DNA of 64,000 nucleotides from Phoronis australis (taxonomy: Eukaryota > Animalia > Phoronida), in contig NMRA01000006.1 in the NCBI GenBank assembly GCA_002633005.1, forward strand, positions 2,131,818 to 2,195,817. Reading direction: 5' to 3'. A program made the position numbers and the translations under genes. Each line of letters opens with the position of its first letter. The first letter of the stretch is position 1. Shown in pieces: positions 19,801 through 43,500 of the stretch. The notes under the pieces are model-generated. The model saw nothing but the letters and a program-made list of their open reading frames with translations. It was not told where the DNA came from and made no database searches.

Positions 19801-22800
19801 TTTTGGATAAGTGAAGTTGAACGTTGTGCCGTTTGGATGACACGAAGTTCACCGTTCAGTTCATGTCTGCAGCTGCTGTTTTTATTGTTATCATTTGTGC
19901 TATAACCAACCTTTCGCGTCATGTCTGATTCACCCGACCAACTGCCTAAAGACGGGGTCTTTGGTTTAGAGTCACCCCAACTTCCAGGACCTCTCTGAAA
20001 TGAATTCGTCATGGCACACGTCACATAGGTGGGTCAAAACCCATTGATGGAGACTCCCAAAGTTTGGATGACTCGCACCCGGGTAGTGAGCAAAAGCACG
20101 TTTGTCAATCACCAAGATTTAAAAATCCCATGGCAGACTAAAGCCAAGTGTTTTAAAAGTAAAAAAACTTTTAGATTCATAGTTCATTCAATTCAAAACA
20201 CGTTTCAATTGATGGATGCTGAATTGCAGCCAACATCAATGACTGACAAAAATATGTTGCAGATGCAGTCAAGCCTTGGTTTCACTCTACATTCAAGTTA
20301 GTTTAAACTAAGCCTAAACTCCAGGCAGCACAACGCACAATTCAATTTCAAAACAGAAGGCAGCCAGTCAACAAAACGCCGTCTTTTAACCAAGAAAAAC
20401 ACCTTTGGCAATTCGGAACAAGTTTCCAGTTTTCCACTTCGTGTTGACTAGCTGCCTCTAATGACCACAAACATAGTAGATGTTAGTACATGCCGACTAA
20501 CCTGATTGGGACCACTGTCCCACATGGAACTGCCATCCATCTTGGACGGGGGTTGAGGATCTCCCCAGCCACTGCGAGAGTTCCAGATGTCGTCGCTGCC
20601 TCGTCCACCACTAGACGGCGTCATAGGGGTTGAAGGCGTGCTCGGGTTGCTCCAGTTTTGTGGGGTTGAGTGACTCTTCACATCCGGATTGCCCCACACT
20701 GCCGTGCCGTCGTCGATGTTGGAAGGACGCTCACCCCCAGGGAGTGGCTCATCCCAGCCTTCAGTTTTGTCCTTCAGACTGCTGCCCCACATGCCCTGAG
20801 ACTCGACTGGAGTCGGCGGGGGACCCCAGGAACCACCAGGGGGCTTGGCAGGTGCAGCACCCCACGATGAGCTAGGTGGTTTCTCAGGGGCTGACGACCA
20901 AGAACCACTTGGCTTCTCAGGAGCAGCACCCCAGGAACTGCCAGTCTCCTGTCGGTCTTTGGCATCAGCCACAGCTCCCCACACGTTAGTGTTGTTCGTC
21001 AGTGGCTGGGGTGACTGAGTGTTTGGCGGGTCACCCCAGCTGGACGTTGAGGTCTTGTGCTCACGACGCTCCTTCCACGCTGCTCCGTTGCCTTGATCCG
21101 GGTTGCGCCACACCTTGGGATCGTCTATGTCCGGGGCATCCCAGTCGCTGGGAGAAGTGATAACCCCGCTGGTTGGCTTCTTGGTCGACTCCCAGATGGC
21201 AGTACCAGTGTTGGCTGTGTGGTTCCACACAGTGGGATCTTCGACCTTGCGCTTGGTCTCGGGCGATTCAGCGGCTGCCCAGGCCGTGTCCTGGCGAACG
21301 GTGGTTGCTCCCCAACCATCGTTGCTGGTTATGGCACGCTTCTTCTCCATCTCCTGCTGCAGTCGGGCTTGCTCGGCAGGAGACGGCATGGGCGGTTTCA
21401 GGCCCTTACCAGCAGCCTGTGCGAATGTACTTGGTTGTTGAGACTTGGCTTGATTAACATTGGCACCTAATTCACCCTGGACAGGTTTAGCACCCCATTG
21501 GGCCTGAGGACTGGCGCCCCAGGCACTGGTATGAGAACTGATAGCAGTGGAGGACGGGGCTCCCCACTGGGAAGGCGGGGGAGGGTTCCCTCTTTCGGTT
21601 GCACCGGTCTGAGACTTTGTAGCACCACCCCATCCAGTAGCGGTAGTGGTGGGGGCAGGATTTGGCTGGCCCCAACCGGACACCGCATTGGGGTTTGGAC
21701 TAGGGTTTTGGCTGGGGTTGCCCCAGCCGCCTGAGTTGAGAACGCTGTCGGGTGAGGGTGCGCCCCAGCCAGACGTGGCGTCGCCAGCGCCCCACTCTTT
21801 GCCATCACCGGGGCCATTGGCAGCAGACCAGCCGGCCGGCTTGCCCCACATTGCAGATCCACTATCTCCTTGAGCACTTCCTTGCATGGAATTCATTGGG
21901 CGTCCACTGCCTGCACCACTGCCGTTGGCTGGCCCACTCACACTGAGACCCCAGCCGGTAGTCAGAGGATTGGCAGCATTGTCGCCACCGGCCAGGTTTG
22001 GGCTCGTTTGCATATTAAGACCTTGGTTGTTGGACATGGACAAGGGGTTTGACCCCCAGCCAGTAGAGTTCATGCCACGCGGGCTGCTGGCACTGGTCGG
22101 CCAGGCACTCGCGTCACTGGTATTGGCTCCCCAGTCGGCGGAAGCACTCTGCGGAGTAATGGCACCTGGGGGGTCCTGGCCAGAGTTGCTTGAGCTTGAT
22201 ATCACAGATCCGGATTTCACTGATGCATTGTCATTGTCATCTTGCTCTGATTGGTCAATAGATGGCCACGCCTGTCTATCTTTGGAATCCACAATAATTT
22301 CATTGCTTTGTTTCGGAGCATCCCAGTTTGAACGGCCCTGGTTGCTCCAGTTTCCAATCGCTGGACTATCTCTTTGCTGGTGGGCTTCAGACTCTGCAAA
22401 GTAGAAACAAACAGCTAAATACCAGACTGTGATAATAATAGACAGAAAAAAATTCTGCACTTAACCACACAAAACATCTCATTAGTCATTGCTTGTCAGA
22501 TTTCCAATCCCATTAAGACAAGCCGCAAACCAGAGTTGGATGTCACAAGCAACGTCTGGGCACTTTGTGACAGACCCAGGAATCAGCTTCACCATTGCAG
22601 ACTACCAGCCAATCAGATTTCCAAAACGTGCAAGACCTGCTTATAGGCTCAGTCTCAACACAGAAACCTATTGCAGAAATAAATTCTGAAATAAGTGGTG
22701 AAGAGACTGAAACGGACCCCACAATAGTAAGAAGTCTACTTTTTGAATATTATTGTAACAGTGAGCTAAATATGGACGTTGACTCAAAAACAGAAAGTGC

Positions 22801-25800
22801 AGTGCATGAATAACACTACTTCTGCCAGTTTACGAAATCTTAGAAAAATTTCAATAGTCAGATGCTACATATTTCAGAGGGGTGCCAAAATAAAAGGTCC
22901 AACTTTCTACCGATTTTGCTCAACCCAAGGCGTACAGTCAGTCGGGGAGACTGGCCTCAGGCAACACCTACACCCAAACACACGCCATCACTGAATAAAC
23001 TGACTTACCAATATCGTTCCACCCACTACCCGTAGAATTGCCACGATTAACGACATCATCACTGCCCCAACTTGTATTGCTGACCCAGCTGGCAGTGCCT
23101 GTGGAGAGTGGAAGAAAAAATACTGTCATAACACATCTTAACATTTAACTTCCGCTATTAAAAACACATTAGCTTTATTTTGAGCCGAAACGCATTACCA
23201 AGTATTGATTTTTTTTGTGGGCTATGAGTTTGCTTCCAGTAATTAGTTGCAAACACCTAAACTACAACCTAGATTGGTGGTAACAAGACCTGCATTTGAC
23301 AAGGAAGTGAAAATCATGGGCAAGACAGCCCTCACAGTAACTACAATCAATTCTCAAAGGGTTTAATTAAGAGTAGCCACTAGCTGAATTACTCCATCTT
23401 TGAAAGAGGTTGCCAAAATGGTCTATATTGAGGTCATTACCTTCCTCCTTCATCAACGGTAAACTATTCTTCATCATCTAAGAAGATGGAAACCAACACA
23501 AATGAGTAATCGCAAACTGCAGATGGCAGCACATGTCTACTCACCGTTTTGTTTCTTCAGCTGATTGGCTTGATTCATCATCTTGGTTTCGCTGCTCGTT
23601 GTTACACTTGTGACTGACGTGCTGGTCTTCTGTTGAGCAGGAGGTGATTGCTGCTGTTTTTGCTGCTGCTGCTGCTTGCTGGCAAACCTTGGAGGTACCT
23701 AGAACGCAGAGTGCAGCATTCGATGAGCAATCGAGGAAATTAAATGGACAAGACGGAAGGCGGTGCTCAGAAGCAAAGCTGAGCACACCATATGAAATCT
23801 GAAGTTCTGGTTGCTCTAGTTAGGTGGCTGAAATTCTTAATCCTTTTCAATGACTGTCAGCACACCAGTGTTATAAACTAGTAAAATCTGATAATCGAAG
23901 ATATGCAACCATTCACAGCATTTGTTTGAAGACCGAAGCCGTGTGAACCAAGTATCCAGCGTCAAAATGCACTTAATCACCACATCCACAATTCTCAGCC
24001 TAATAATTCATTACGCTGAAGTCACCAAATCGGTTTTTGAACACCCACTTCCATCTGTGTTTCACAAACACCTGATACTCCGAGGGAACCCACATAAACC
24101 AGCAATTGGTTAACTCATCGTGCATATTCTGACCGATTGGTTTAGCATGTATTCAAAACAACTATGCATTCTCGAGGAAAGCAGCTTTTTTAACTAACGA
24201 ATATAAGTTAAATTTTTTTGTTCATCACCAACATTATGTCATTCCTCGCTATTCATATACACCTGTGTTAAAAAGGAAATTCGAAAGCAGAATGTCAACT
24301 TAGCAGAACTAAAACAATGACCAACCTCATTACATCAATAGGTATTAAATTCCAATAACCACAAAATTCTCTCAACACTTCAACTTGCACAAACCGTGTT
24401 TTAAGTGACATCACTGATAAAATCGTATCTCCTAGACCCACAAAGCTTACAACATTTTCTTCAAGATGGGGTTCCACAAATTCTCAATGGGGTCTCATTT
24501 ATTACCACAGACGCCATCTTGCGGAAAAAATCTGCGAGTTTTAAAGCCACAAGTGGATGCCATTGCAGCTATTAAACCTGACATGAACACCACATTCAAG
24601 AATAGATGGCTTTATAAATACAGCTTGCGGGTTGCGCAGTTGCTGCCTGTACACAAAAATGCTCTGATTCACAATAGCTGCAAATTGCTCAGCTCAGGGT
24701 CAATTTCGCAGGAAGGCCTTGGGATTCAGATTGACTCAGAGCCACCGGGTAAAGAGCGAGAGGAGCAAGCGGCTTACCTCTCTGGGAGGATAGGTTTTGT
24801 CCAGCTGCTGTTGCTGCTGCTTGGCGTTCTTCGCCGCGCTTTCCTTCTTCTTCTTATCTTCTTCCTCTTTGGCTTTTTGCTCAGCCAACTACAACAGAAG
24901 AAAGCAACACTAAGTCGATACTACAAACCACCATTCAAGATACGTCACAATTCACACAACTTAAAGCGATATTTTGTAGTGTTTAACTGGCGAAAATCGA
25001 ATTAGGCCATTTATACGCCCATATAATCAGTCTCGTAATATTCCTTACTGTGATAGTTATGCATTTCCGTCACCAATTGAAGTCACAGGCAACACGCATA
25101 AGTGCCATTTTCACTTTTGGGTAAGCCAATATTTACTCAAATCACTGATGGTTGCGATTTTCTTGCTGGTAATGGAAACAGAGAACCCTATCAAGGTAGA
25201 AGGCTGAATTCGATTCTCGTTTTTTTAGCCAACTAAGCAGGGTGAAATGCAGTTTAAAAAAGATCACTTTATTACAGATATTTTCTAAAATGGGTACATC
25301 AGAAGGTAAAATAAAACCTACACAGAAAACAAAATTTGTGTTGAAAAACTCTTAACTACCACAGCATGACACGGTTTTATTTTCGGTTATTAAATCCTGC
25401 CTGTGGGTAAAGCATTCAACTGCAGCCCTCAATTGAATTTCACAAGCTAACACACATTTGGGTAAGCCTTTATCCCGAATTTTATCCTTGAGTCGACTAA
25501 CATTAATTAGGAGCCTGAAAATAGAGATTACCTTTTGCTTGGCCTCTGCCTGCTTCCTCTTTTTCTCCTCCTTTTCTCGTAAGCGCTCTTCTTCCTTGAG
25601 ACGAGCTTCTAATTCCTCCTTTTCTCGCTTCTCACGAACGACGCGATCTCGCTCTTCTCTGAATCAAATGAGGGAATCATCAGTTAGGTTTTACAGTATA
25701 AAGCTCTTGACACGTAAGCGTCAGACTACTTTCCGACAGCGTCTTGAAACCCGGGATATCAAAACTACGGTGAAAGCTAAGCTTTTGCACCTGCTGATAA

Positions 25801-28437
25801 TTCCATATGAACAATGGCCACTGTATACAAATCTCAAATTCAAACATTGTAGAAGGTGGACGGTAAAAAAATGGGAAATTCCCCTGCTTCAAATAACATC
25901 CGCTATTGAAACCCAGTAAAATTTCAGTACAGTGTGTACTTCAGTTAATAAAAACGCAAGCAGAATCTAACCAAACAGAACAAAATGAAAACAACACCAA
26001 CAGGAAAACAACACCAACAAAAGTTTTCCGCTCTACCATATAGAGCAAATACAGCATCAGACATCGGAAAATTGGCTTCGCACACCACTAGCTACCTGTC
26101 TTTGCGCTTTCTATCTTCCGCTGCCTGTCTACTTCGCTCTTCTTCAATCTTCTTCTGTTTCTCGTACTCAGCTTGCTCACGACGCTTCGCTTTCTCTTCT
26201 TCGAGCTTCTGTGTTTTTGCAAGCTCGTCAGCAATCTTTTCCATTTCCTGCTCCCGCCTTCTCTGTTCGGCGGCTTTCTGTTTCTTGCTCTTTGGCTTTG
26301 GCTGAAACGGATGAACGGCGCGCTATTAGTACACGAAGACGATGAAAGGTCAGAACAGACGCGCAAGGTTACTCCGACTAAACCCCAACAACTTACACTT
26401 TCGAATAATATATTACCACCACATGCACTCATGTAAGTTGTGGTTGGCCAATAAGTGACACGTCAAACAATGGCCTAACGGATAATTTCAGAAGTGTGAC
26501 CGGCATCATTTGTGGATGAATACTTTCATTGAATCACTGGTTAACTGTGTAGGGCCAGACAACACATCGAAACAGTGTTACAACTACATGTTAATGTGCA
26601 TAACAAGCTGAATTTATCTTCGTTATGAGCTTTTCTTTCACCAACGATATTTTCTAATAATACAACAAAAAAAAAACTGAGCCCATAGTTCAACGAGAAT
26701 TAACAGGGATTTAGTGCTTAAATTGGAAGCGTTGCACAAAAAGATCCCCACTTTTTTCAATAACATCAGAGATTCAACGGAGTTCACTCTCAATTTGAAT
26801 AAAAGACAATGATCAACTTAGTAGTGAAACATAGGAAAGGACGATCAGTGTTTTTACAAGTCCGCAAATACGTAGTAAATTTAGGGAACTTAAGTTTACT
26901 TTTGATGTTTGGCTGAATTGAAATCCAGTTAGCTGTTAAGACCAACACCTATTCCTGTAACATACTGACAGAGCGACACACGTGAAAATCCACCCCTCCC
27001 AAACATTGAAACAAATAAGGACCAAAAATGCGAACCTAACCAACACGTTCTCCAAACTGGCCCCCAGATTTGAGGCCCTGCAGGTCAACTGACCCGTAAC
27101 TATTTTTTTTTCAAAAACTATTCCCGACTATTGAGATTGTTTAGTCAATAGTAAAACCGTCTCCCTTACTGATGTAGGACACGAACACCTCCTTGAATAA
27201 TCTAACAATGGCAAAAACTTATGTTACGACACACCTCAAGTAATTTATAGCAGCACAGTCAATTCATGTGCAAACATGCAATTCACCACAACAGAGTCGT
27301 ATTACGCCCATTAACATCCATGAATTAGTGAAAAGGTTCTGTTCCCATAATAAATTATAATGAACAGAAGCAACTTAAGTTTTCTTACTTCCTTGCTTTC
27401 ACAAGGACCAGCGTACTTTTGGTGAAGGCCACGGAACCTCTAGAACATAGCCAGAGGTCGAGGTCAAAGCACCAGATTGAAAGAATCAATAGCAGTATTG
27501 ATGAAGTTGTATTCTAGTCTGAACTGTGGAGGTTCATATGTGTTGACTGGTGAGAGATGTTCAAGTCATTCAAACTGTGCAGGTGTTGCGAAAAGTCACC
27601 TTAGAAACAGGAACTTGGCTCGGAGTCTTGGCTTTTGATGCACCTGGTTTCTTACAGTCTCTTTTGATTGCGTCTCGTTCGTCTAAAAGATCGTCTTTCA
27701 ATTCAGCGAGCTACAAGCACACAGAAAAGCACTGCGTAGAGTCGATGCGTTCCCTGAAATTTCCCTCTTATGCAGAGCACAGCACCCTTCAACACTAAGG
27801 GGCCACACGAAATTAGACCAAAAATGACCACTGAAAGAGATTCACGGGCAAAACAATATGAGACTTAACTAAGAGAACAAATGGGATAACACATTTCCTG
27901 TTTGGACTCACGATTTTCTACAAAATGATTGCCCACAAAAAGTAGACATGTGGTAATTTTTGTTAACTATTGTTGCTAAGGTAGCAAAACAGAATGCATG
28001 AATGCGGTAAAGGACTGAAATATGAGGTGTTTAACCTGTATTTCTCGCAAGTAGTTACTCTTCTTAAAACTATACTTTTGTTTATTTCCACGACAGTAAT
28101 ACACGCACACTTGCAGTTTTGAAAGATATCAACAGTCACAATATTGCTGGTAGAGATGTGAACACCACTTTCAGTCAGCAAGGTTCAACATAAAAACAAC
28201 TGCCCTCACCTTCTCTTCTGAAAAGCCTTCGGGTACGCTGACACCGCTTTTCTGCGAATTTTGTATAATATCTACAAATGTGTCGAACTGTCTCTCTGCA
28301 GGATCTATGTCGTCGTCATCATCAATGTACATTTCATCACAGCCGCTAGCTAGAGGCAGCGGGCTGAAGACGACGGACACGCTCCTCTCTGACTTGTCAG
28401 AGAGTAGCTCATTCTCAAAGTGGTCGAAGAAAAGTCT
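12053..28437 (-). CDS. TNRC6: GW182/TNRC6 (Gawky) miRNA silencing effector, core 17 exons
   Basis: Minus-strand exons in 5'->3' order: 28210-28437, 27600-27710, 26096-26301, 25532-25658, 24778-24888, 23545-23698, 23009-23098, 20502-22393, 19911-19994, 17575-17688, 16867-17053, 16209-16415, 15535-15692, 14990-15145, 13068-13845, 12734-12798, 12053-12484. Phases are consistent. Motifs seen: YPPREVPPRF; GW/WG repeats with DDGTAVWG and NTGTAIWE; UBA; Q-rich region; PAM2 (PEFVPGQPWQG); RRM ([26 protein letters not shown]); C-terminal LIPGGLLG. The donor at 16208 is weak. Confidence 0.92.
13977..14642. mobile_element. PIF/Harbinger-like MITE
   Basis: CTG|AGGCCCGTTTC ... GAATCAGGCCT|CTG, with a 3-bp CTG duplication. 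Confidence 0.5.
15902..16056. repeat. 41-bp minisatellite, ~3.8 copies
   Basis: Unit CACGCTCGACGACCAACAAGGCATTGTTACAAGCTCGATAC starts at 15902, 15943, 15984 and 16025. Confidence 0.92.
16867..17053 (-). CDS. TNRC6: GW182 UBA-domain exon
   Basis: Reads RSRMIQLLMNLGVSKDQATAAIISNDMNLDNAI and continues as AEL in the next exon; canonical AG/GT boundaries. Confidence 0.88.
20502..22393 (-). CDS. TNRC6: GW182 large exon: GW/WG-repeat Argonaute-binding region
   Basis: 1,892-nt exon inside ORF 20448..22460. It has dense WG/GW dipeptides plus GWGATTVRQDTAW, NTGTAIWE and IDDGTAVWGNP motifs. Confidence 0.95.
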
Positions 28438-28595
28438 CTGTAATCATAAGATGCGTGCTACTTATTGGTCGTGGGAAAGATCTCAGAAGATGACATAAAA
28501 TAACCAATATGCATGGAAATGGGTGTGTAAGGAAAACACCAAATAAGACCAGAACTGAATTACGGACATACAAGAATCTTGCCAAGGAAGCTCAC

Positions 28596-28714
28596 GTGAC
28601 CAGGTGCTTCGCTTGTAATACATGGCAATATCTTACTATTGTGTTTTCGCGTGGTTCTCTCGTCTATGAACGTACACCAGATATATGATAAGTGGATGAG
28701 ATTTTCTTCAAATT
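28596..28714 (-). CDS. TNRC6: GW182 N-terminal extension exon following the J-like domain
   Basis: Acceptor tccttttcccacaactacag (phase 1), donor cac|gtgagc (phase 0). Reads EFEENLIHLSYIWCTFIDERTTRKHNSKILPCITSEAPGH in frame into exon 28210-28437. An alternative acceptor at 28761 and an in-frame ATG at 28742 also exist. Confidence 0.7.
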
Positions 28715-29990
28715 CTGTAGTTGTGGGAAAAGGACATGCCATGTTTCTTATTTTAGATCCCTAAGCAACTCCAGTCTTTTCAGAATTCATCAAATAATTT
28801 TTTAACAGTCAACCCCTAAGTAGCAACTGGTGAGTTGGGTGAAATCTGAGGTGGCCAATTCAAAGGTGAGATCACAAAATGTTTTCGTTCAGCCAACATT
28901 TGACAAGCGTTTATCCTCAAGGTAGTTGGAATTCATTCTTCTTGGACATTATTTTTGTAAAATGCTTAGAAGAGGGCAACGAGAAAAGAACGTGGTTAAG
29001 GTAATTCTTCACATATTCAGCACACAATACGGCCGACAAGTGAAATTCTATTTTGACAAAGTTCTCCACAAAAATAAAGATTAAGGAGATGTTGGTCCAT
29101 TACCAGAACGGATAGTATTGTGCAGGGTCATAAAACAACATTTGGTAAAGTTTCCATGGTAACCAGTCTTAGGAAATTGGTAAAATGAAAATTTTCGCAA
29201 CCAATTTAGTGCGTAATAAATGCAGAACTACCATACCAGGAAGGTCTCAACAGCTTGTGAGGTAGGTAAGACTGGCTTCAATTATCCCTGCTATAGAGCA
29301 AGAGGAAATAGGGAATTGCTTTTACCATTATTGAATCCCAATAATGTGCCACCTTACACTAGTACAATTATACAGCAACTAAGACCCTCATTTCTTGCAC
29401 ATGAATTCTTGGTAAATTAGGCAATGTGGTGGAACATGGGCTAACGAGAGTTCACCACTATTTCACAAGTATTGATTCCTTTCAATTCTTTGAATGTCAG
29501 TTGAAACTGCAGGTGTGTTTTGAAAATAAATGCAGATATAGCGCAAGGTCACTGTAGTCACTACTGGTCAAAGTTAATGCCAGTTTCAGCATCTTTCAAA
29601 GTACCTCCCAGCTACACCAGCTTTATGTTGCCTAGCAACCACTGGCAATGGCAGCAGTTGCTAGGTTTCACTAATACTGGATAACCCATCACTACTGAAC
29701 ATCTAGTTGTCAAAGCAATTCATAGCAAAGATGAAAAAATAGCAACTTTGTCCGTTTTGTAAACAAACTGTTAAACAAATTTTTACCAACATGTTTAGCT
29801 CCTTGGAGATACTACTTGGAAGTTTGCCCAAGAAAATAAGTTGTGATGGCTTGAATGTTAAACAAATACGTTCAGTTAACTTACATTCGAAAGTCGATAT
29901 TAAACAAAATGCGAAAACGTACCAGATCACAGTCTTCTTTTTTATACTGTTTGATACCTGAAACAAGAGTAGTAACAAGGTACCTAAACT

Positions 29991-30162
29991 ACACGGTCAA
30001 CGGACTCATAAACACGACTCACGGACCTGCAAACACCGTCCACTGACTCACAAACACGGGAACGGACTCACAAAACACGATCCACGCACCCAAATACACG
30101 GGACACGGACTCATATTCACGAGGAAACATGGTTAACGGACCGCCAAACACGGGTCACGGAC
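29991..30162. repeat. Degenerate ~21-bp minisatellite
   Basis: Recurring AAACACGGNNCACGGACTCA-like units. Confidence 0.7.
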
Positions 30163-33100
30163 AAAATGAAGATGTCAGCNTCCAGGCTGAAAGTTGGTTT
30201 CAAGATGGGAGTAACACTGAACTGCCAAGGAAAGATAACTAGCACAGCAGCTGCTCTGAGCATGAAAAAAGTTAAATAGGTCAACGAAAAGGTCAAACTG
30301 CTGATAACTGAAGCAGGCTGTCTGAATGCAGAGCCATACATATTGATTATCTGGGCTGGCTGCAGCACACAGCACAGTCAGTGGGCTGAACAACAAGCAT
30401 AATAAGCCAACTTCAGGGACATTCTCAGCCTACAGTAGACACAATAGCACCACAGGAGTTTCTTTCAATGGTACAATATACACCAACACAAGTAGGGCTA
30501 GGAAACCACAACAGCACCTGGACCATGTAACAGTATCTTTATGAACAAATTTAACTTGGCCTGATGTAAAGTAATACATGCAGGGCAAACAAACATCTGA
30601 TCACATGGTTCTGTTGGCGACTGGCATGTTCATCTGGTCCTTCAAAATATTGGGCAACAGCACAAGGGATTCCTCCCACAGATGAGTTATTAGGGTATGT
30701 GCTTAACAGCAGCTAAATATAGACAAAGCTGACCACAATGTTTGCCTGTGGATGGGGAGGACCACTCTAATAGACTAAACAAGCACTGGTGGACAATATA
30801 TACATGATCATTTTTTACAGTAAATTAGCCAGCTGGTCAGCTGAGAACACCAACATTGATGACATAAATCGAGAAATCACTATACAAACTTCCCACTGGT
30901 CCTACGCAAAGTTCCACAGACACAAGACATTAGCCATTGGGGGATTTGCTGCGAGAATATTCACCTTATGGAATGGAAATGGAGAATTTTAACCCACAAT
31001 TCCATGTTCCAACCAATCATTTGAGGCTATGCCATTAAAAGTTTGCCTATCACTCCTGAGGTCTTTTGTGATGCCGTTCTCTCGCAAGAAATTTGTTCCA
31101 CGGAAGGCAACTCTAGTGCCAGGGTTAAACTAGACAAGTTTTCTCAATGTTGTAGAAAAGTTGAGGAAACAGTATTCCCACAAGCAATGGTAAATTAGTC
31201 AACCAAAAAAAAACAAGCCAGAGACGGCCTTTGATGCCTCCCCTATGAAAAATATATATATACATTTAAAATCACACGCAATTCCCCTAGACAGGCCCAA
31301 AACTGCCCTCAAAGTGAGAAAAGCTTATGCAAAATGTTAGTCTAGTCAAGTCCCCTACACAAAAAATTCCCTCTCATAAGGCACAGGCTCCTTTTCCCTC
31401 AAGTGAGCGAGGGTCCCGAGAGCATTTATCTCAATAACATGACTACTTTGATGATTTATTTCACCTGAAAGCAACAATTACTGAGTGTTGAACAAATACA
31501 ATAACTGCATTGCAACAAAATATATAGAGCATTTTCTACTTGAAAAGCATGGACATTACTGTTTGTACCCTTTGACATTGCCCATCAGATACTATGATCT
31601 TAGAAGACACTGCTCAAACAACCACATATTCAACATAACTGTTTCCACCAAAACCACTTCTTGGAATACGATAACTGCTTTCTACATTCCAGCGATATTT
31701 ACCAACAACAGCCGTGCCCCACGGGAGTGGCACTCTGTTCCCCTCCTAATCACTATTTAGAATTAAAATTAAACTGCTCCTTGCCATTCAAATGCCAATA
31801 ACATTTGCTATATATAGCATTACAACTTACAATACAGACGTGAAAAAGTTGGAATGATGAGCCACTTGGCTCACAAGTGTGTAACTGTTACCAGCCCTAC
31901 CATTTGAAAACTAGGTCAATCATATCATGCGTCTCTTGGCGATGGCAAATGAGAAGAGTTGAAACCAGGAGGTAGGTATAAATACAACCAGTCAGGTAAC
32001 ACACCTTAACTGTAGCAAATGGACAGGTGTTTGCATGTTTAGTAGCCAGAGAAAACAACACACCAGCGGAACGCTACAATGAACTCCGGAGACACGGAGC
32101 TGTTTTGCTTAACATGGCTTCAACAATGAACATGTATGGATTTAACTCAGCGGTGTATATAATCTATAATTCAAGCAAGGTGGGCTATCTAATAATTGCA
32201 ATGGTCACAGGCGATCAATACCAGCACCCTTTAGTATGGGATGTAGAAAAAGAGGCAAGGCTCAACCATTAACAAACATAACACTGGAAATTCAACTTGG
32301 TTCATTTACAAGTAGGTAACAAATGTGTGCAAACCCAGGGTCGTAAACAATTACCAGAGGATTATGTACAAAGAACTGCTACTGGGCAGGCTGAAATCTA
32401 TACAATCCAGCTCAAGTCTCATTATAGTTGTTCACTGCCTCGTAAAGAATTAAAGACTGAACAATGCCAGTTTACAAGCAAATAAGTGTAATACCACTTG
32501 GACAAGCCTTGCTACTAGCTGTCAACTAGAGGGGAAGCCATTCAAATCATGGAGTCCATACTTAACAGCAAAAATAGTGTGCTGTAATTATAGTAATTAC
32601 TGGTCTTATTCAGCTACTTCTGAGCAAGTTCAGTTCAGTCTGGACACAACGCACAAGTGTCAGTGCTCCAACAAACAGACGCAATACAAGGACAAAAATC
32701 TATATTTGAAGCTCCAAATGCTAGAGATAATGGTCAAAGGACGCAAAGATTACTGTCAACTACAACTGGTGGTATCAAACTAACACTGACACACTGCTGT
32801 CTCTGTTATCACTTGTCTGATAATTAGAAGTCAAAGTCTGCTCACTAACAGGTAAAAACACCATTAGCCACCAGAACACATAAACTTTCGAGACCAATCC
32901 GAAAATGATTAAAAACAGCAAACAAGAAAACATTTTCAACTATATAACTTCAAAAATAAAATGAGATTTGTTCATAAGTTTGACAAACACACATATCCCA
33001 TGGGAGCCAAAATCCAAAAATGGCAATTTCGGACCTTTTCATTTTTCAGAAGGCTTTGCCAATACTTCCAATTTTCAACACAGCAACGACAATTTTTAAG

Positions 33101-34207
33101 TTTGTAAAGGATTAATTAGCAGGTACTTGTCTTCTATGAAAAAAATAGAGAATAAAATTTCTCTTGTCCTCCATACTTAATAGGCGAGATGTCACTGAGC
33201 GAGAAGACCCAAGTAACCATGTAATAGCCCTACACGGAGCGAACAAAATGCACAAGTGAACCTGCTTTGAAAAGTCTGGCACTTCTGAGTCAAATTAAAC
33301 AACAATACGACTGAGTGGACTGCATATTCGCGGACATTTGTCTAAGCCAACCAAACTTCTTGCTGTTGGTAAATTGCGACTAACTGTGCAACGGCCATCC
33401 ATACACAGACTTACCCTAGAACGAAGTTACTCCTGAAACAAGCCGACGCTAGGTTTGGGGGCTGTTTGGACATTATTTAAGCTGGTGCAACTTGCCCCAT
33501 CATGGTAGGGTAACTTGTTCTAGAATAACTTGCACCACTTCAAATTGCTGAGTGGTCGTAAAAATGACACAAGCCGTAATTATCAGCTGCCAGCTTATGC
33601 CGTTATATACATACGCGTCTTCTTTTTCACGGCGTATTCACATCAGCCACTCATTGTCATGCACAGAACGACAACTTCTGCCTTGCACCAATCATCAAAT
33701 ACATGTGACTGGACACTCTGCTTAAAGCGGGAAAGTTGCTCCAGTGCAAGTTGTTCTATTGTAAAACTGTGTAATGGACGGGACTTAAAATTGGCAATAA
33801 GCATTGAGAAGTAGTAACAATTTCAATTAAAGGGACCATGATGCCTCGACTAGGCAAAAATTACCTTCCAATGACTAAAAAATTCCCATTCAGTTTAGAA
33901 TCACCTTTACTCACATTCGCAGCTGAATTGATAATGACAGTTGATGGGTATTTTCTCCTCGTCCAAAGAGAATCCCCACACAGAGGGAAAAAGACAACAT
34001 TACGCTCAGGTGAGAGAAGTCCCAGAGCGACCACCACAGCAACACTAGCGGATGCACTGCATTGTTGACAAGGAGAGAGAAATTACAGACGTTTGATATT
34101 TTGGACAGGGGCCATTGATTACCATCTGCCACTTCATGCACACAAGTGATACTGACACACAGAGAAAAAAAACTGGAAATAGCGATGACCAATAAAATTG
34201 AACATAC

Positions 34208-34259
34208 CTGAACAAATATATCTGAAGGCAAGGGATATCTCTTTGAATCTGTCTGGATT
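34208..34259 (-). CDS. J-domain-like helix III exon, probably part of the GW182 N-terminus
   Basis: ttttcag|...|gtatgt boundaries; reads NPDRFKEISLAFRYICS, similar to the DnaJ consensus EKFKEISEAYEVLS; phase 0 to phase 1. Confidence 0.75.
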
Positions 34260-35690
34260 CTGAAAACAGAAAGGTAAGACAAATACAAATGCAGTATACA
34301 TTGTGCTAAAACACAACACCAGAAGCCAGTCACCAGGGAAATGCCCAGGTACACAAACCAACCTGCATCTAATTAGGCGTTCAATCGGCAGTAAGGTCAA
34401 TAACTCCGAACTGGTTAGGGAGATGCTACACAAACTAACAACATCCGGCCCAAGACCTGACCGACAGACTTAGGTACATGTACTAGCTCGGAAAGGTGTG
34501 TAATCGTCGCACAATTATAAAGCAGCAATTAAATGGTGGCCCGTCATCTCATGGTAATTATCACGCATTAAGACCAGTTAATGTATACCAGAGGGATGCC
34601 TAACTAGGAAGTTTGACACGACCAAAATACAGGTGAGCGCACTGGGACAGGACACAGCTAATGACAGATAAGCGAACACTACATAGTTTTCCAGGAATCG
34701 ACAAAAGCGAGTAAATGCTAGAGAATGAGAGCGAAAAAACCAAGGTATAATTGACTTAACTTGTATCACGCATACGTGCACCTGACTGCTGGTGGTTTTT
34801 ATTGGTTGCCCCTTTTTACGAGCCTAAATTTGGAAAGACGAGTGCAAATATGACATCACTTGTATTTTTAAGCAAACATTTTTTTCTGTGTCAAGCGCTG
34901 CTTTTCTAAGTCCTCACTCAACAAAAATCTATAGACCCTGATTTTCTGTTATCAAAAATTAAAATCCATTTCTTTCCGTTTTGTAAATTAGATAATTCTG
35001 TCTTAGCATTCCCAGGTAAGATATAATATGAAAATATTTATGTCACAACTCTGCTTTAAATACTGATAATTTGCTACAAGCCATGTTCATTGTCCCTCAA
35101 AACAGGAGAAAAAGTGCCAGCTACAGAAAGAAAAAATAACTACTTAAGTGTGTCCACTAAAAACGGCCATTGATGGATTCATGACACAAATTGGCATCAG
35201 GTCATGAATTTGATAGATTAAGTTCATAATTTTTGGTAATTAAAAGCTAAAATTATCACAATTCTGGAATCTACTACTGAAATACGTAAATTCTGTTTCC
35301 AAGTATCTGTAAAAACAAGTTCAGTGCGTAAATTCAGTTCGTTTTCGTTGTCATGCAAAATCAAGGTCTCTAAAAATCCAAACAAGCCCCTTGAATTTTA
35401 ACATGGTAAACATGCTTATTCGCAAAAACAACTATAGTTGCACAATTCGTTCACTTGCACTAACAGTTTTATAGCAAAAGTATCAAAATTAATTCGACAC
35501 TTCATAAAAAGTGGAGTAGAAAAAAAAATCGTCTCGCCAGTCATGGCTCATGAGTCAATTGGCAGAGATCCTTTCAGACGTGGCTCAATGTTTCTTCACA
35601 ATATTCCTTTTATTCTTTCGCAGCACAGCTCAACACCATGCATGAAGTACTTTAGTTTCCTTCATCAATGTGAGACGCAAGACGAATTAT

Positions 35691-35810
35691 GGTAATGGTC
35701 TGATACAACGTGGCCGAATTTTGAGAACTAGTTTTCTCAACTGAAAAACAGGCATCAAGCTGGTTCTCAAAATACGGGCACGTTTTATCAGATTGTTGCC
35801 CGAATTCTCA
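35691..35810. mobile_element. Short fold-back MITE
   Basis: ~41-bp imperfect inverted arms TCTGATACAACGTGGCCGAATTTTGAGAAC / GTTCTCAAAATACGGGCACGTTTTATCAGA. Confidence 0.55.
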
Positions 35811-36331
35811 CACTGGAATCATTCAGGAACTGGGTCATGATTCAACCTGCATTTCTCAAAGCAGACAACACATCTATTAAGTCAGAGTGTATTCAAAATA
35901 AGAATATCTAGCAGGGATCAGGAACCAGTGAGGTGATTTTACCTTTTAGGATTTGTGAACTCTGTGCACACGAAACCATAACGCTCAAGAGCACAAGTAT
36001 GTAACAGCATGCTGACTATAGATAAATACATTCTGCTGCGACTGAATCCATCAGGTAACTGGCAAGACCCTGGCAATGCTGGTAGTTAAAACTATCTGTT
36101 CCTGCTGACAATTATTGTGACCAGGCACGCAAATAGGTCACATGAAGATATAACAAGAAGGGTAAAACAGACAGGAGTGAGATTTTCCAAACTACACCGT
36201 AATAGAAACCTGGCATATTTTTTAACCTAGCTGGCCACACGCCAAGCCTGAAACTCAACTGGAGTGGCATTCCTTGCTTACACCCGTTAAGAATGTACCA
36301 TGCAATAGTCTTCACAAACAAGGAAACTTAC

Positions 36332-36399
36332 CCTAGATTCCAAGTCGTTGTATGGGTGATATTTCAGAGCAAAATGCCGATAAGCTTGCTCCGCCTCAC
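36332..36399 (-). CDS. J-domain-like helix II/HPD-loop exon, probably part of the GW182 N-terminus
   Basis: tttacag|...|gtaagt boundaries; reads EAEQAYRHFALKYHPYNDLESR, similar to the DnaJ consensus EIKKAYRKLALKYHPDKN; phase 1 to phase 0. Confidence 0.8.
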
Positions 36400-38290
36400 C
36401 TGTAAAGGTATGGAGAGTTAAACAGGGTTAAGGGAAAAGTTAACACTGCGCCTGATAAAGTGAGATAACCACATCACAATTGGTGTTGACCACCATGGTT
36501 AGAATCCAGGTACAAGAACCAATGTGTAAACAGGTATCATTCACAGATAACAACATACGGTAATACTGGACATTTTAAGAAATAGTGATGCAGGTATACA
36601 TATATATGTGTGTGTGTGTGCCTGTGAGTGTAAGTGTTGGTTGGCAGAAAGTGTGCTGAGCAAACACCAATAGGTAAACAAAACACAGTCCATATTGGGA
36701 AGTGTGAATAGGGAGTTATGAGCCTAATACTTGTAGACACACAATGAAACCATTTCACAGCTGTCACCCACCATGCAGACTGGCAAAGAAACTGGTAATG
36801 AAGTAGTAGCTGTATAGTGACTGCGGGTAATTCTAGGTCTGGTAATGGAATATGGTCTGGGCAACTAAAATTCACATTTATCGATTAAAGCTGTCCAGTC
36901 AATCCTTGCAATTAACAACACATAAAAACTGACACATAAAAACTGACATTCAAAACCACAGCTTTACTCAACACAATACACAAAATCCCAGCCGCAGTAA
37001 TAAATTTAAATGAGCCTTGTTATCTATTTATAGTTTACTGATCCAAAAAATAATTTCACTGACCTAGTCTAGGGTAACGTTTTATGATGCTGATTCAACA
37101 TAAATCAATGCGTTTTCTCATTTCACACAATCTTCCTTCTAAAGTGAAGGAGCTGGTGGAAGCCAACTGATTTGAATCCCCAAAGCATCATAGTAAAAAT
37201 AACAGCTTTTAATTTAAATAACACCAGTCTGACTATCCAGATTGAATTTGTTGTCAATGAACTGTTGAGTTGAATGTGTTCATATATCTCCTCTTAAAGC
37301 TTAAACACTTCCAAGCAAAATACTTAACATCAAGGTGAATTCAAAGTCACACATTAATGTTCAGAGACCTAAATGAAATTAGTTTTTCGCCATCAAAATT
37401 CAATGCAGTCGAATGTTTCACACTAGTTTCAAATACGGATCAATACAGAGTTAAATTGTCACATCTTTTAGAATTTAAACCAAACCCAAATTTAATCAGA
37501 TAAATCTCAGAACATTAAAGTCTTGCTCGAATAATTAAGATTTTTAACACTCTTTCATGCACTCACCACAGTTATTGTAAATTTATAATTGAATTCTTCA
37601 ATTTTCAAAATCTTAAAAATTTGAAAACCGCTTTTCTTGAAATGAAAAATCAGTTATACAGCAGAAATTCAAACTATGGAACATTCTGAACCAAATCAAT
37701 AGCACACAAATTAAACGGAAGATGACTATTGTGCAGTCAATACCTAATGCATATTTTGTGCAGGGCATCAGCACAGTCAGAGAGGCAGCCATTTTGAATA
37801 ATTAATAAGGTCTTGTGGTTAAATGTATGTTGGATGTTTTGATACAATAAGTCAACTAAAATTTCACCAGTTCGAATCAAATGTGGACACAACCTTTCAA
37901 ATTACTTCGGGCGCTATACATAAGTCAAGTTCAGTTGTTCCAAGCACGCTAATTGACGCCACAAAAACTTCGCCCAGTTTGTGGACGACGAATCGAAAAC
38001 GAGTCGTCGACTTCCAATCTCTAACTCAGCTCAGGAAAATTGCAGCTTGTTCATACCTAAGACTTAATGTATAATCATATTATTAATTACTGCAAACGAT
38101 ATAACAACCTAATCATACGCGACACACATCAATTCCAAAGATTAAGTAATAAAATAACGCACACTAAAAATAAATTACACGGAAATTTTTCCCTTCGTCA
38201 ACTGGCTAAGAGGAATTTTGCAACGAGTACCTGCTGCCAGCAATCATTAAAGGCAAGATAGATGAGTATTATGATAACAAAATTACTCAC

Positions 38291-38339
38291 CCGATACACA
38301 AAATACTTCTGAGAATTCTCTATATACAAAATTGAGCAC
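38291..38339 (-). CDS. Candidate upstream exon of the J-like/GW182 gene
   Basis: atccag|...|gtgagt boundaries, 49 nt, ending in phase 1 as required; reads VLNFVYREFSEVFCVS. No recognisable motif. Confidence 0.3.
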
Positions 38340-39015
38340 CTGGATAGAATATAAAAAGGCCAGAAATGCAGTAATCCACTACTCCCTGGCTTCAGAGCAG
38401 TGACCTACAACACAGCATTTCAAAATGTCTATCACTGCACATGCTCATAAAGTCACATGACCTAGTGAGGCTCCGCCGGGTGAAATCGGACAGCAACAAA
38501 AACAAAGCACACCCAGTGGCTGCAAAGTCAATGACTTCATCATTTTACCAGGATTTCTGTGTGTAGAGATCAAGGCAAATAACATGATTTGCAAAATATT
38601 AGAAGATATAAAATACTTCATAGATACATTTAACTGATTTTTTATCCCAAATATAAATGAAGGTAGATCATGCACAAGTTTAATTTTTGACAGGTTCATT
38701 TTTTCATTCTAAAAATGCTATACAAACCAGAAGCTTTGAAAAAATAATGTATTTTAAGTTTGGCTGCTGATACCAATTCAAAACACACACACAACTTGAC
38801 TACAAAAACACAGGGTTCATGCCAAGTACAACATCCCAACAGTCTGTTCAGCCTGGGATTCAGAATTTCATCCAAGGAGGACGGGGTCCGACAAGGGAAA
38901 ATTCATTCTCATTGTTTTCAAGTGAGAATGCATAGTCATTAAAGTACAATACATTTTTTTACATTTTTCATGGTCTGTTGGGGTCTATTTCGCAACGCCT
39001 ATCAAAAATTTTTCA

Positions 39016-40470
39016 CCGTATTTGCCCTAATAAGCGCCCATGCCCCTACAAGCGCTCCCCCACGTGTCTTCAGGCTTTGCTAAAATAAGCGCCCAGTCCA
39101 TGAACACCGTGTACATGCGAAAACAGTTCTAAAATTCTACAGTAACGTCTTCAATTTATCAATAAGATTTGGCAGTCATGAAAAAATCATTGTGCGTGGA
39201 ATTTGTAGACCACGAGCCTCGACGCTATGTCGGTATTTAGCCGTGACTATACACTTCAAACTTCCACCTTGCTTCAAAAAGAACGCAAGTTTTGCTGACG
39301 GATCTTGAGAGGGATGTGTCCTATTATGGTCTGGCCTTTCAGAACTGACGCAGCGTACTTGTGAAAGGGATTGTATTGTATCTTTCCCGCACAGATCTTC
39401 TTCCTCAACAGGAATCCAAATTTCTTTATACACATGAAAACCGCGAATCCGCGAAGACTAATAAAAACTTGACCTTTGTTCAGTTAAAAGCACGTGGCCA
39501 GGAAGCGCGCGCTACATTCAAGTAACTGTCATCGAAGATTAGTCTTTGGGAACTATCTATTCATGAAACGGGTAGCATAGTATCGGCAAGAAATAAATAC
39601 TGGCACTTATTTCCGAATACCGTAAAAAAGTTTGTGTTATTCTTAAGGGGGAACTATTAAATTAGTCGTAAATGGTGTTTTTAAAGTCAAAATGACCCAC
39701 TGATAGTAAACACTTCCACACCCTTACACCCCCTGAAAAAAAACTATTAGACTGTCACGCAACCTTTCACCTGGTGACTCAATATCGGCCTTACCGAGAC
39801 AATGCTCGAGCGTTTTTTTAGCAGATGAGATCAACAAGACTGCTAAATAAAACAGTTCTGCTTTACTGCTTGTGTTAATTTCCTTAGTTACAATGCATAC
39901 CTAGATCGTTACATCCGTTTACTCTGGCAAATCAACTCTGATGACACGCACGCGCTCGCTCACTCACACAATATGCAGACGAACTTCAAAACAAACATCA
40001 CGTGACAACAACACGTGTGTTCGTCCAGAGATTTTTCTCGTGTTGTGGAGTACGATCTAGCACAGATTTGGATTTAATATGCAGTTAATCCTGACTCCAC
40101 AGGAACTTAAAAATCTTAGGAACGCTATTTTGAAAACTTAAGGACTTCAGGTAATTTGTTGAGTCGAAAATATATTTTTACTCAAGAATTCAAGTTGACC
40201 TATCGGCGATCGCAAGGCAGCGACGCATCAGTCGGCGAGTTTTCGCACTGGGATTTTCTGAAAAGTGCTCGTAATTTAATAATTAAGTTTGATAGCAATA
40301 CTCTGTCATAGTTTACGGATGTGACACAGAGCATAAATTTGATGAATTCTAGCTTACGATTTCATCCGTTTCGGAGACCGGGTTTCAACCACTTTTGGGT
40401 TATAATAAGCGCCCCCCTTCCAGAAACGAATTTTTCTAAGCGCCCTGGATGCTTATTAGGGCGAATAGGG
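39016..40470. mobile_element. TIR element with CCGTATT-type ends (Tc1/mariner-pogo-like, non-autonomous)
   Basis: Left end CCGTATTTGCCCTAATAAGC; right end GCTTATTAGGGCGAATAGGG followed by TA; subterminal TAAGCGCCC repeats at both ends. Confidence 0.72.
39176..39457 (-). pseudogene. HIRAN-domain-like pseudogene inside the TIR element
   Basis: Reads SSRIRGFHVYKEIWIPVEEEDL, then after a frameshift YNPFHKYAASVLKGQTIIGHIPLKI, then after a second frameshift FFLKQGGSLKCIVTAKYRHSVEARGLQIP. This fits the RGxHxY...NxxDxxAV...GHxP pattern of HIRAN. Confidence 0.7.
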
Positions 40471-42071
40471 TAATCAAAATTGGATCACTGTAGTCAGACT
40501 CTGAACACAATTAAAATGATGAATTTAGATATATTTTCATGTGAAATAACTGCAGAACTAGGATTACTTATTTTTAGCCCAAGGGTCACATATTAACAAG
40601 GTTAAAACAGTGTCACTTCCGATAATTCCCAATTTCCGTAGCAAAGGGGTTGGTATTATAACAAACAACAATTTCTTGATGATAATACAGGAAAATAGCC
40701 ACTTCCCGCAATACGACAGCGCCTTCTCTGCTTCTGCGGTATTTACCCACAATGCTGCACATCCGTGGCCATGAGACACTAGCAACACAGCTGTACACTG
40801 CTGCTGTGGCAATCACAACTTTATATTGAAATTAGTTTACTCTTCATCATTTTGATATGAATAAAGTTTTAGAGTCGGACAGTAAGTTGCAATGCAGATA
40901 TAAAAATATTTCAAAGCTCAATGAAGTACGATAAAGTTAGCAGGCCTACACTTCGAAAGCTAGATCAATCCCATAAGGTGTTTTCATTACAACTAACTTC
41001 CTGTTTGGTAGTCAGTAGTCCTGAGGACACCAGTTTTCAGAGTCCCGATATCAATCATTCTTTTGTTAATCGCCACGCTAAGTCTTTTGTCCGATGTCAC
41101 CACGAAAACGCCTGAATTATATGCCACGCTGAATGAAAACATTAATGTAAAAACGCATAGACTCAAAACAGTTGTCACCAAATAAAAACCCATTGCAGCA
41201 TTTTGGCCAATTTTTATCATATTTCTTACGTTAAAAAAGGATTTTGCTTTAAAATTTCACGTGGAATTTAATTTCAGAAGTCAAACATATTAAAAAATTA
41301 CCAGTTTCTATCCTTGACACATCAATTTATTTCAGCCAGTATTTTATTGCCAAGAAGACATCACTAATGTGATAATTGCCCTGTACAACACATTAGGAGC
41401 TGAGGTCCAACTTCTGTGATATGAAGGCGGACGGCAACATCGGTTTTCCCCGGTTGATGTAGAGAAACATTGTCCAACCACAAGATACCATTGAACGACA
41501 ACCCGATTTTCTAACGTTCTACCTCCACAAATGAAGATTGAAGATTTCGGTATGTGGCAATTACAGGGTGGGAGAGGAGAGCAACTAGCAAAATATCAGC
41601 TTGATTCACATGGTTTTGCCACTGCTGGAAATCACATTGATATCACAGTATGTCACTTGTCCAGATGCAAGCTAACTGTGCATTAATATTGATCATGTAA
41701 AATCAGTAAATGAGAATATGGTAAGTGCTTCAACCAACAAGACAGCACAGTAACTTCTATAAACATACAGTATAGTAACATGTGTGTAAGAAACTAACAT
41801 TGGGCGTGTAAGACTGATGGTGATGATGTTGTGTGAATGTGAAAGAAAACCCCATTGACAAAGAAGACATCATTTACAGAATAGAAAGTGCAAGTTAAGC
41901 GCTATGGTGACACTGGTGAATAATTTATGACTCTATAATCTTTCATGACAGAAGAAATGAATAATATGCCAAAAGCAGAATTTAAGGTTAACAAAAACAA
42001 TACAGAGGGTTGATATGCACTCACAATAGCACTGCAAACTCTGTGCTTCTGAGTGTGTTTTAGGTACCACA

Positions 42072-42430
42072 AAAATGGTCATTAGATGATGCGGAATGAG
42101 TCAAAGCCATCCGAATTGAGGTCACATCGTCTCTGTAATATATTTCTACCAATATTTGTCAAATTTCATGAAATAAAGCCAATGAACTCCTAAGATATAG
42201 AGGCAAATGCAAAAAACTACTGACACTAGGGGAAACAGTTATAGACCGATTGGTCTGAAACTCATCGTCATCTGTTGCCATATGTAAAGCAGCCCATCTG
42301 CCAAATTTCGCAAAGATCATTCACAGGGTTAAGGAGATGCAGTCATAGATGCAAAATTGCCCCTAAGGGGAGCCAGAATAGTTGAAAACATATGAAAATC
42401 AATGTCAGCTGGGGTCTTTGCCACATGTGT
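42072..42430 (-). repeat. Partial copy of the same ~144-bp-unit repeat family
   Basis: Shares GTCAAATTTCATGAAA, AATGAACTCCTAAGATATAGAGGCAAATG and CACTAGGGG with the 47.4-49.1 kb array. A further decayed copy lies at ~49850-50270. Confidence 0.6.
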
Positions 42431-42480
42431 TATTGATACCATTGTTTTGCTATAAATATACCATTCCTTTTTTTACTAAA

Positions 42481-42950
42481 TTTTACTAAAAAGACAACTT
42501 CACAAGATCCAATTAAGGCAAATGGGTACTACAAAGTTAAAATTAAAGTTTGCACACTTTCTACATTAAAAATAACTGATATAAAGTTAAATTTCTATTT
42601 TTTGCAGATATCGGTTAAATGCAGGATTGTTAATAGGGTTCCACATAATAGGCCCAGAGTAATCTATTAATGGCTACAGCTAACATGCCCAGTCAAGTCC
42701 CACTGCACCTCAAGGACTAGGAATGACTACAGCAAACCGATATATCTTTTTTCAAAGCTAAATTTCACTAAAAGACAGGGTCACATGACCCAATTAATGG
42801 CAGATTGGTAAAAAGTCGAAAATCAAATTCTACACGCTTTCTACATTCAGAAAAAATACACTTTCACAAAGTTACTTTCCATAGTTTTGTACAGATACTA
42901 GCTAAATACAGACTTGTCACTTATGTCCTACAGAATTACCCGGAGTATTG
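42481..42950. repeat. Diverged direct duplication, ~280-bp period
   Basis: ACTAAAAAGACA...CCAATTAA...CTTTCTACATT...CAGATA occurs at ~42485 and again at ~42767. Confidence 0.55.
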
Positions 42951-43369
42951 ACATTTTGGTTTCAAGTTACAATCAAAATCTTCCAGCTTTGTACTTTCAG
43001 AAAATATATACTTTTGTAGCTGGTTAATTTGCAGCAATTGGCAAACCAGACTTGTCAATATGGTACCAGAGAGAAAAGAAATTTATTACAGTGACCAGTG
43101 TTACTTGAACACATAGCCCACTGGACTTATTACAGCGAACAGTATTACTTCAACACTCACCTCACTGAGCTTATTAGTCACTTAAAACAGCCACGAAAAA
43201 CATGTGTTGAATGTGCAGCTCACAGGTGTGTACTGCACGATGGCTCTGTTTCGATACGGTTGCGGGCTTCCTACCGTGTGCTATGTTCACACTCTCCACT
43301 TGTAAGGCCCTCTTCCGGCTGCCACGTGTATTTCAATGTTTAGTTCGCTATGTATATGTTCATTCCAGT

Positions 43370-43413
43370 CATTGCCTGATGATGAGACATGCCGTCTCGA
43401 AATATAGCTAGTG
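43370..43413 (+). ncRNA. Minimal type-I hammerhead ribozyme motif (Penelope-like)
   Basis: CATTGC-CTGATGA-T-GAGAC(ATGCC)GTCTC-GAA-ATAT-A-GC(T)AGTG: stem I, catalytic core, 5-bp stem II, and a palindromic tetranucleotide in place of stem III. Confidence 0.68.
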
Positions 43414-43460
43414 TTTTAATTTGTTTGTTTGTTATGTTTCTTGGTGTTTACTACATACCT

Positions 43461-43500
43461 GCACACCTGAAGAAAGGAGACCGTTCCGAAACTACGAGCG
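43461..43500 (+). ncRNA. Second, degenerate minimal hammerhead motif
   Basis: GCACAC-CTGAAGA-AA-GGAG(ACCG)TTCC-GAAAC-TAC-GAGCG; core and stem II are present, but stem I and the palindrome are decayed. Confidence 0.45.

Follow-up and report, generated by a model that had tools for sequence, protein, structure and literature searches.

A lophotrochozoan-type GW182 gene with an N-terminal J-like segment that reads HPY in place of HPD

Did the fusion of a DnaJ (J) domain to GW182, known from cnidarians, survive into bilaterians, and in what state? A 64,000-nucleotide stretch of DNA assigned to Phoronis australis (contig NMRA01000006.1, positions 2,131,818 to 2,195,817; hereafter the window) raises this question through a GW182/TNRC6 gene on its minus strand. 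An initial annotation, made from the letters alone, had proposed that three small exons with canonical splice sites join the GW182 frame and encode helices II–III of a J domain whose His-Pro-Asp (HPD) motif reads HPY. We somewhat favor reading the locus as a lophotrochozoan-type GW182 whose N-terminal HPY J-like segment derives from an ancestral Hsp70 co-chaperone module and has probably lost the ability to stimulate Hsp70. Support is good for the evolutionary claim but not for any function of HPY.

Four public RNA runs carrying one species label (X1–X4) were aligned to window positions 21001-41000, and a second RNA alignment covered 36201-56200. All exons described here lie on the minus strand, and RNA joints appear as CT..AC on the forward strand. 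Eleven RNA junctions chain without a gap from 38291 to the start of the GW exon at 22393, splicing the J-like module in frame to GW182 as the initial annotation had claimed. The four J-region joints—38291 to 36399 (2 reads in X2 and 6 in X3), 36332 to 34259 (17 and 20), 34208 to 29957 (15 and 29), and 29923 to 28437 (12 and 17)—are followed by seven with 10–34 reads each in X2 and X3, and the same seven occur in a 1294-base contig from X1 with almost no differences. The last of these, 23009 to 22393, has 16, 29, and 5 reads plus the contig. Run X4 has 0 reads at the four J-region joints and 0–5 at the other seven, too sparse to inform. The full model has 20 exons from 38339 to 12053 and 1733 codons, with 0 internal stops and 39 GW/WG dipeptides; its last eight junctions were predicted from splice sites and open frame. 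Its features are as follows.

38291-38339, minus strand: furthest-upstream exon observed; continues the GW182 frame for 16 open codons without an ATG; RNA joint to 36399
36332-36399, minus strand: encodes J helix II and the loop; joined by RNA at both ends, Pfam DnaJ E=0.0085, PDB matches
36350-36358, minus strand: HPY codons in place of HPD; from sequence, aligned to DnaJ positions 33-35 of 5nro_B
34208-34259, minus strand: encodes J helix III; joined by RNA at both ends, alignments to homologues
29923-29957, minus strand: 35-nucleotide linker exon, the true third exon; RNA joints; gives the length match to amphioxus
28596-28714, minus strand: third exon of the initial annotation, rejected as the main form; intronic in the RNA-supported form
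28210-28437, minus strand: conserved helical and acidic segment after J; RNA; first in-frame ATG at 28332-28330 (residue 104); no Pfam family
27600-27710, minus strand: end of the conserved helical segment; RNA joints, alignment
26301-26096, 25658-25532, 24888-24778, minus strand: three exons for the EQRRR motif and charged coiled coil; RNA joints, motif table
23698-23545, 23098-23009, minus strand: two exons for a Q-rich stretch and the first W motifs; RNA joints
20502-22393, minus strand: large GW/WG-rich exon, Argonaute-hook region; RNA joint; best matches mollusc and nemertean GW182
17688-17575, 17053-16867, 16415-16209, 15692-15535, 15145-14990, minus strand: UBA-like and Q-rich middle, five predicted exons; splice sites and open frame
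13086-13845, minus strand: PAM2/TNRC6-PABC-binding region, predicted exon; PF16608 E=7.4e-09, above cut-off
12798-12734, 12484-12053, minus strand: RRM and stop, two predicted last exons; PF00076 (RRM_1) E=7.3e-07; top matches named TNRC6/Gawky GW182 proteins

Two of the three exons proposed initially, 36399-36332 and 34259-34208, hold up in their AG/GT boundaries, their compatible phases, and in RNA, together with the junction that joins them. The third, 28714-28596, does not: Neither of its junctions, 34208 to 28714 and 28596 to 28437, is among the best 15 of 27 joints, and RNA uses 29957-29923. The RNA form also fits a profile of the homologous module better, at 154 bits in one domain against 142 bits split in two for the form first proposed. 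With a GW/WG-rich region, a PABC-binding region, and a GW182-type RRM all present, the gene is a GW182/TNRC6. Exon 17053-16867 by itself has no Pfam match, and the UBA domain may span a junction. A further candidate exon, 19994-19934 (AG/GT ends, GW-type codons), was dropped; as bounded, it breaks the frame. Most RNA reads carry a 3-base insertion at position 23660 in the Q-rich exon, a length polymorphism.

By sequence comparison, helices II–III resemble J domains. The helix II exon (21–22 residues) has DnaJ as its sole Pfam match (E=0.0085), bearing out the likeness seen initially but at 16.6 bits, below the cut-off of 27.8; against PDB at E<=10, 23 of 23 matches are J proteins (best E=0.072). 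Joined, the two J exons score 25.2 bits on a J profile built from 11 GW182 homologues, whereas the best of 5000 shuffles (4794 reported) reaches 10.5 bits. Aligned to DnaJ in 5nro_B, the segment conserves positions 25, 33, and 34 and has Arg at 26 and Tyr at 35. The motif thus reads HPY, as first noticed, at the DNA level (36358-36350), with no differing RNA base there in X2 or X3 among the best 40 of 41 difference rows. On this alignment, the canonical HPD motif has lost its Asp to Tyr, a non-conservative replacement as in type IV J proteins. The 13 residues before the motif His hold 2 Lys/Arg plus 2 acidic residues, so that helix II is net neutral, its positive charge lost; the corresponding Lys/Arg counts are 3–5 in cnidarians, 2 in Ptychodera, and 1 in amphioxus.

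The segment belongs to a larger shared module: a J domain, ~140 conserved helical/acidic residues, the EQRRR coiled coil, and the REVPPRF motif, the last straddling exon junction 24778/23698 in the window. The closest modules are those of Branchiostoma (XP_078692795.1, KAI8512270.1) and Ptychodera (XP_070580602.1) TNRC6, at 43–45% over ~188 residues; identity to amphioxus is 44.7% over 188 residues (E=6.6e-41 in the local set) and to Ptychodera 43.3%. Exon borders match as well: Alternative amphioxus models (P0027, P0154) break where the window's exons do. The amphioxus and Ptychodera proteins, which are database models, both combine Pfam DnaJ, UBA, and RRM in one protein and, unlike the window gene, have retained helix I together with a start Met and HPD. 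HPD is retained in 10 of 11 chosen J-bearing homologues. The exception, a Xenia sp. GW182 J domain (P0206), reads FPD, a second, independent loss of HPD. The initial annotation was incomplete on this context, and the HPD-intact amphioxus and Ptychodera versions are the larger result.

We surveyed 57 proteins of at least 1000 residues among the best 150 RRM matches, some of them not GW182 and many incomplete; the J profile matched 3 of the 57, namely two Branchiostoma models and Ptychodera. Two further profile searches scored 7994 and 7989 candidates and gave 5 and 19 matches, respectively, mostly cnidarians, including Nematostella, Hydractinia, Hydra, Clytia, Rhopilema, Sanderia, and Xenia; these searches are insensitive and the survey is thin. 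A word search with the RRM exon yielded 34 candidates, 0 of them significant. A quick maximum-likelihood tree, built from the final 1000 residues of 23 proteins, places the window gene with a nemertean and four molluscs (Shimodaira–Hasegawa-like approximate likelihood-ratio support, SH-aLRT, 99), outside the gastropod–bivalve clade and apart from four cnidarians; two rows that we take to be vertebrate group with hagfish. Summed BLAST scores also favor lophotrochozoans over cnidarians. By these sequence criteria, the window gene is a bilaterian, lophotrochozoan-type GW182.

How does this compare with what is published? All cnidarian GW182 homologues are reported to carry DnaJ and bilaterian GW182 to be without it, with a role in Argonaute loading proposed (PMC3840309); among 448 genes, DnaJ was reported in Nematostella only (PMC4615383). 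The DnaJ domain of Nematostella GW182, which the initial annotation had mentioned, is indeed on record (PMC3840309, PMC5314787). The window gene resembles cnidarian DnaJ-GW182 (Nematostella nvGW182; PMC3840309, PMC4615383, PMC5314787) in its order of N-terminal J, helical/acidic segment, EQRRR coiled coil, REVPPRF, GW region, and RRM; it differs in being bilaterian, in HPY, in its neutral helix II, and in that no canonical helix I or AUG was found. Because J segments occur in the window and in the amphioxus and Ptychodera models, whereas two papers deny DnaJ to bilaterians, the fusion likely has an earlier origin than published, with repeated losses; very probably, to judge from these comparisons, it is ancestral and survived into bilaterians. 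We found in print neither the bilaterian presence nor the degenerate HPY form in a lophotrochozoan: Among the papers listed by our literature searches (most subscription journals lay outside their reach) none concerned a bilaterian J-GW182 fusion, and no paper was found noting the J domain of Branchiostoma or Ptychodera TNRC6. The term "HPD" is absent from the main texts of PMC3840309, PMC4615383, PMC5314787, and PMC11194074. If the inference is right, the fusion moves to the cnidarian–bilaterian ancestor and several later losses are implied. The natural series HPD, FPD, HPY, truncated, split off, and lost would then test the Hsp70–Argonaute-loading proposal, open since 2013, and amphioxus would allow it to be tested directly in a chordate.

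The later losses would have been stepwise, with the window gene as one stage. All three Tubulanus (nemertean) isoforms seen begin at a Met matching residue 104 of the window model; the N-terminal module is absent from the annotated GW182 models of Pecten, Patella, Haliotis, and Potamilus; and a scallop has a separate HPD J protein. That protein, Argopecten irradians XP_069116780.1 (P0208; 1873 residues), matches Nematostella at E ~3e-16 (local set) and carries J, an acidic stretch, and EQRRR as in the GW182 module; unlike the window gene, it has an intact HPD, 5 basic residues in helix II, and 2 GW/WG only, and DnaJ is its sole precomputed Pfam family. A second stand-alone record, XP_069116779.1 (P0209), likewise has the GW182-type N-terminal module with HPD and no GW region. 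The Argopecten stand-alone protein is either a fission product or an old paralogue.

What would the altered motif mean for function? HPD is needed for Hsp70 stimulation, and even Asp to Asn (HPN) abolishes it (PMC13254874). DnaJ D35 pairs or forms a salt bridge with Hsp70 R167, and the residues listed as touching Hsp70 include Y25, K26, and H33 (PMC13012618). With Tyr at the HPD Asp and a neutral helix II, Hsp70 stimulation is predicted to be lost. We picture a module that, in cnidarians, amphioxus, and acorn worm, would use an HPD J domain to switch on Hsp70 beside Argonaute–GW182, as proposed for the cnidarian domain (PMC3840309); in the window, loss of the Asp would remove the Hsp70 salt bridge. 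Helices II–III have likely been retained for a structural role within the 200-residue N-terminal module, or else have begun to decay. Silencing itself would depend on the GW hooks, PAM2, and W motifs, as it does elsewhere among animals; the Nematostella GW182 C-terminal domain alone represses tethered mRNA (PMC5314787), so the J domain would be dispensable for silencing output. An arrangement with similar parts exists in C. elegans, where DNJ-12 links ALG-1 to HSP-1 and so ties a J protein to Hsp70 and a microRNA Argonaute (PMC11194074); unlike the window protein, DNJ-12 binds Argonaute as a separate co-chaperone and has no GW182 fusion.

Models of the Ptychodera and amphioxus modules, folded as stand-ins, show a J fold, then four helices, then a long helix, which in amphioxus lies at the region matching the EQRRR/coiled-coil exons. 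The amphioxus J domain against the next helical segment gave a packing score of 0.48 (best of 3 controls, 0.01; contacts agreeing at least 87%, partner predicted local distance difference test, pLDDT, at least 66), within a range, up to 0.60, where only 5 of 78 solved complexes reached the pass mark, as did every one of the 4 mismatched pairs (out of 180) that passed at all. These models lend weak support to packing of the amphioxus J domain on the next helical segment, which fits, without showing, a structural reason to keep helices II–III. For the stand-in models, Foldseek gave no match at E<=0.001, with weaker rows nearly all J proteins, and the best VIA-align hit (Z 7.0, root-mean-square deviation 4.3, 100 aligned) was not above background for helical models; the segment therefore has no assigned fold. 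An Atlas search gave no usable match for the post-J segment and, for the scallop protein, generic DnaJ clusters at 0.87.

Where the protein begins bears directly on this picture. The first in-frame ATG of the model is that of residue 104 (28332), and two out-of-frame ATGs precede it. Position 38339 is a good phase-0 splice acceptor followed by GTG, or the exon may instead be a first exon extending further upstream. The initial annotation could place neither helix I nor a start codon with confidence, and no convincing helix-I exon emerged among 1824 and 1081 donor candidates in 36460-64000; a separate six-frame test of little power (a true scallop helix I scored E=1.2) gave nothing convincing either. 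Exon 38339-38291 ranks 126 of 1081 in helix-I likeness, not significant, and its helix-I-like block lies 15 residues from the His, a distance that is 20 without exception in 12 of 12 homologues. The exon shares its end phase with the amphioxus helix-I exon, of which it could, on sequence grounds, be a diverged descendant. The GTG at 38339 stands 6 residues before the helix-I-like block, like the start Met in Nematostella, Xenia, and amphioxus, in weak context and directly after the strong splice acceptor. We also weighed whether a spliced leader might provide an AUG at 38339; the literature search yielded nothing usable. Residues 17-103 are still ~30% identical to their distant counterparts (for amphioxus, 26 of 85 aligned positions); this identity, together with the presence there of out-of-frame ATGs only, fits protein-level constraint. 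We consider it probable that the J segment is translated in some isoform.

Several points weigh against the favored reading of an HPY segment retained in a translated GW182 module. The last eight junctions of the gene model are predicted only and, the reads being short, no single molecule runs from J to RRM. The full-length amphioxus and Ptychodera models are labelled low quality or partial, and J absence in other animals refers to annotated models that may miss small 5′ exons. The tree is a quick one, with no bootstrap or approximately unbiased test and lacking annelid, brachiopod, and phoronid rows. No in-frame AUG was found ahead of the J segment in exons up to 38339, and an in-frame TAG lies at 38381-38379, 14 codons ahead of 38339, if that exon is first. 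Among the joints listed for 36201-56200 none is spliced upstream of 38291, although 75 further loose ends lie there. Loose-end medians are 98 and 101 at 36332 (P 0.004–0.05 per run, uniform model), and intron depth is near zero in 7 of 13 upstream bins versus 0 of 7 inside bins, in a comparison where 1 of 2 further inside bins is also zero, likeness thresholds differed, and bins were hand-picked. These two weak signs hint that the mRNA 5′ end is close by; with the 5′ end near the J exons and no upstream AUG, the J segment may be untranslated. In that case, the J-like exons would now be 5′ leader, the start and helix-I exon having been lost recently, with translation from residue 104 and HPY in no protein. 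We regard this as possible but doubtful. It would account for the lack of an in-frame ATG before residue 104, the stop upstream of 38339, and the probable nearness of the 5′ end, and it agrees with the matching Met of the three Tubulanus isoforms and with J-less isoforms annotated in Nematostella, Hydractinia, and Clytia. It sits poorly with 103 codons open across five exons without a frameshift and conserved at ~30% to distant homologues, with the two out-of-frame ATGs that would come before the residue-104 start, and with the strong in-frame acceptor at 38339; a small upstream exon could also lie among the loose ends.

If the segment is translated, it could act as a type IV pseudo-J domain that binds Hsc70, or else a J protein partner, at the silencing complex and does not trigger ATP hydrolysis, as recruiter or brake; this is close to the docking-site or decoy role suggested in the initial annotation. 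Known type IV proteins (DNAJB13 with HPL, Pam16 with DKE; PMC13254874) share J-like helices and a non-conservative HPD change, and such roles are raised as open for them; unlike the window segment, which is known from the sequence of helices II–III, they have full J folds and known complexes. The DnaJ Y25, K26 (as Arg), H33, and P34 positions are kept, and Xenia lost HPD independently. A helix III Phe, presumably the counterpart of DnaJ F47, is kept too. Set against these are a helix I that is missing or unrecognizable, the failure to find an AUG ahead of the segment, the net-neutral helix II, the block-to-His distance of 15 versus 20, the occurrence of HPY in one species only, the putative nature of the segment's translation, and the finding that D35A weakens binding in simulation (PMC13012618); we judge this role unlikely. 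A more far-reaching version holds that GW182 was born with an Hsp70 co-chaperone, intact in amphioxus and acorn worm, split off in bivalves, and here a translated pseudo-J (with a non-AUG start or an unseen mini-exon) holding Hsc70 unfired at the microRNA-induced silencing complex; we think it quite improbable. Finally, the J-like exons could reflect chance or a separate gene, or the animal could be a cnidarian whose case is already published. The sub-threshold Pfam match of the single exon, amphioxus models with the N-terminal part alone (P0151, P0152, P0154), and the stand-alone scallop version speak for chance or a separate gene, but the unbroken RNA junction chain and the E=6.6e-41 match to amphioxus contradict it, as the tree and summed BLAST scores contradict a cnidarian source; all of this is highly improbable.

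Related observations concern other GW182 N termini. J-less or J-truncated isoforms with alternative first exons are annotated in Nematostella, Hydractinia, Clytia, and amphioxus (P0181, P0170, P0207, P0237, P0154), and long and short GW182 isoforms may form a conserved switch. Hydrozoan-like GW182 proteins (P0196, P0198, P0200, P0201, P0202) have their start Met at the end of helix III, so that either the calls are truncated or the J domain was lost. Another shared feature is a REVPPRF-type motif that follows the charged region in the window, cnidarians, amphioxus, Ptychodera, and vertebrate-looking TNRC6, and the vertebrate TNRC6 N-terminal extension may, from this sequence likeness, be a remnant of the J module, although no vertebrate-type N-terminal extension is reported for invertebrates (PMC4615383).

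Elsewhere in the window, 58852-60026 carries a THAP domain on the plus strand (PF05485, E=1.7e-08) opposite a P2RX7_C-like frame on the minus strand (E=0.0001), likely a transposon remnant. One dispersed repeat has copies at 46873-49540, 42050-42410, and 10100-10800 with 67–75% identity and draws reads from elsewhere.

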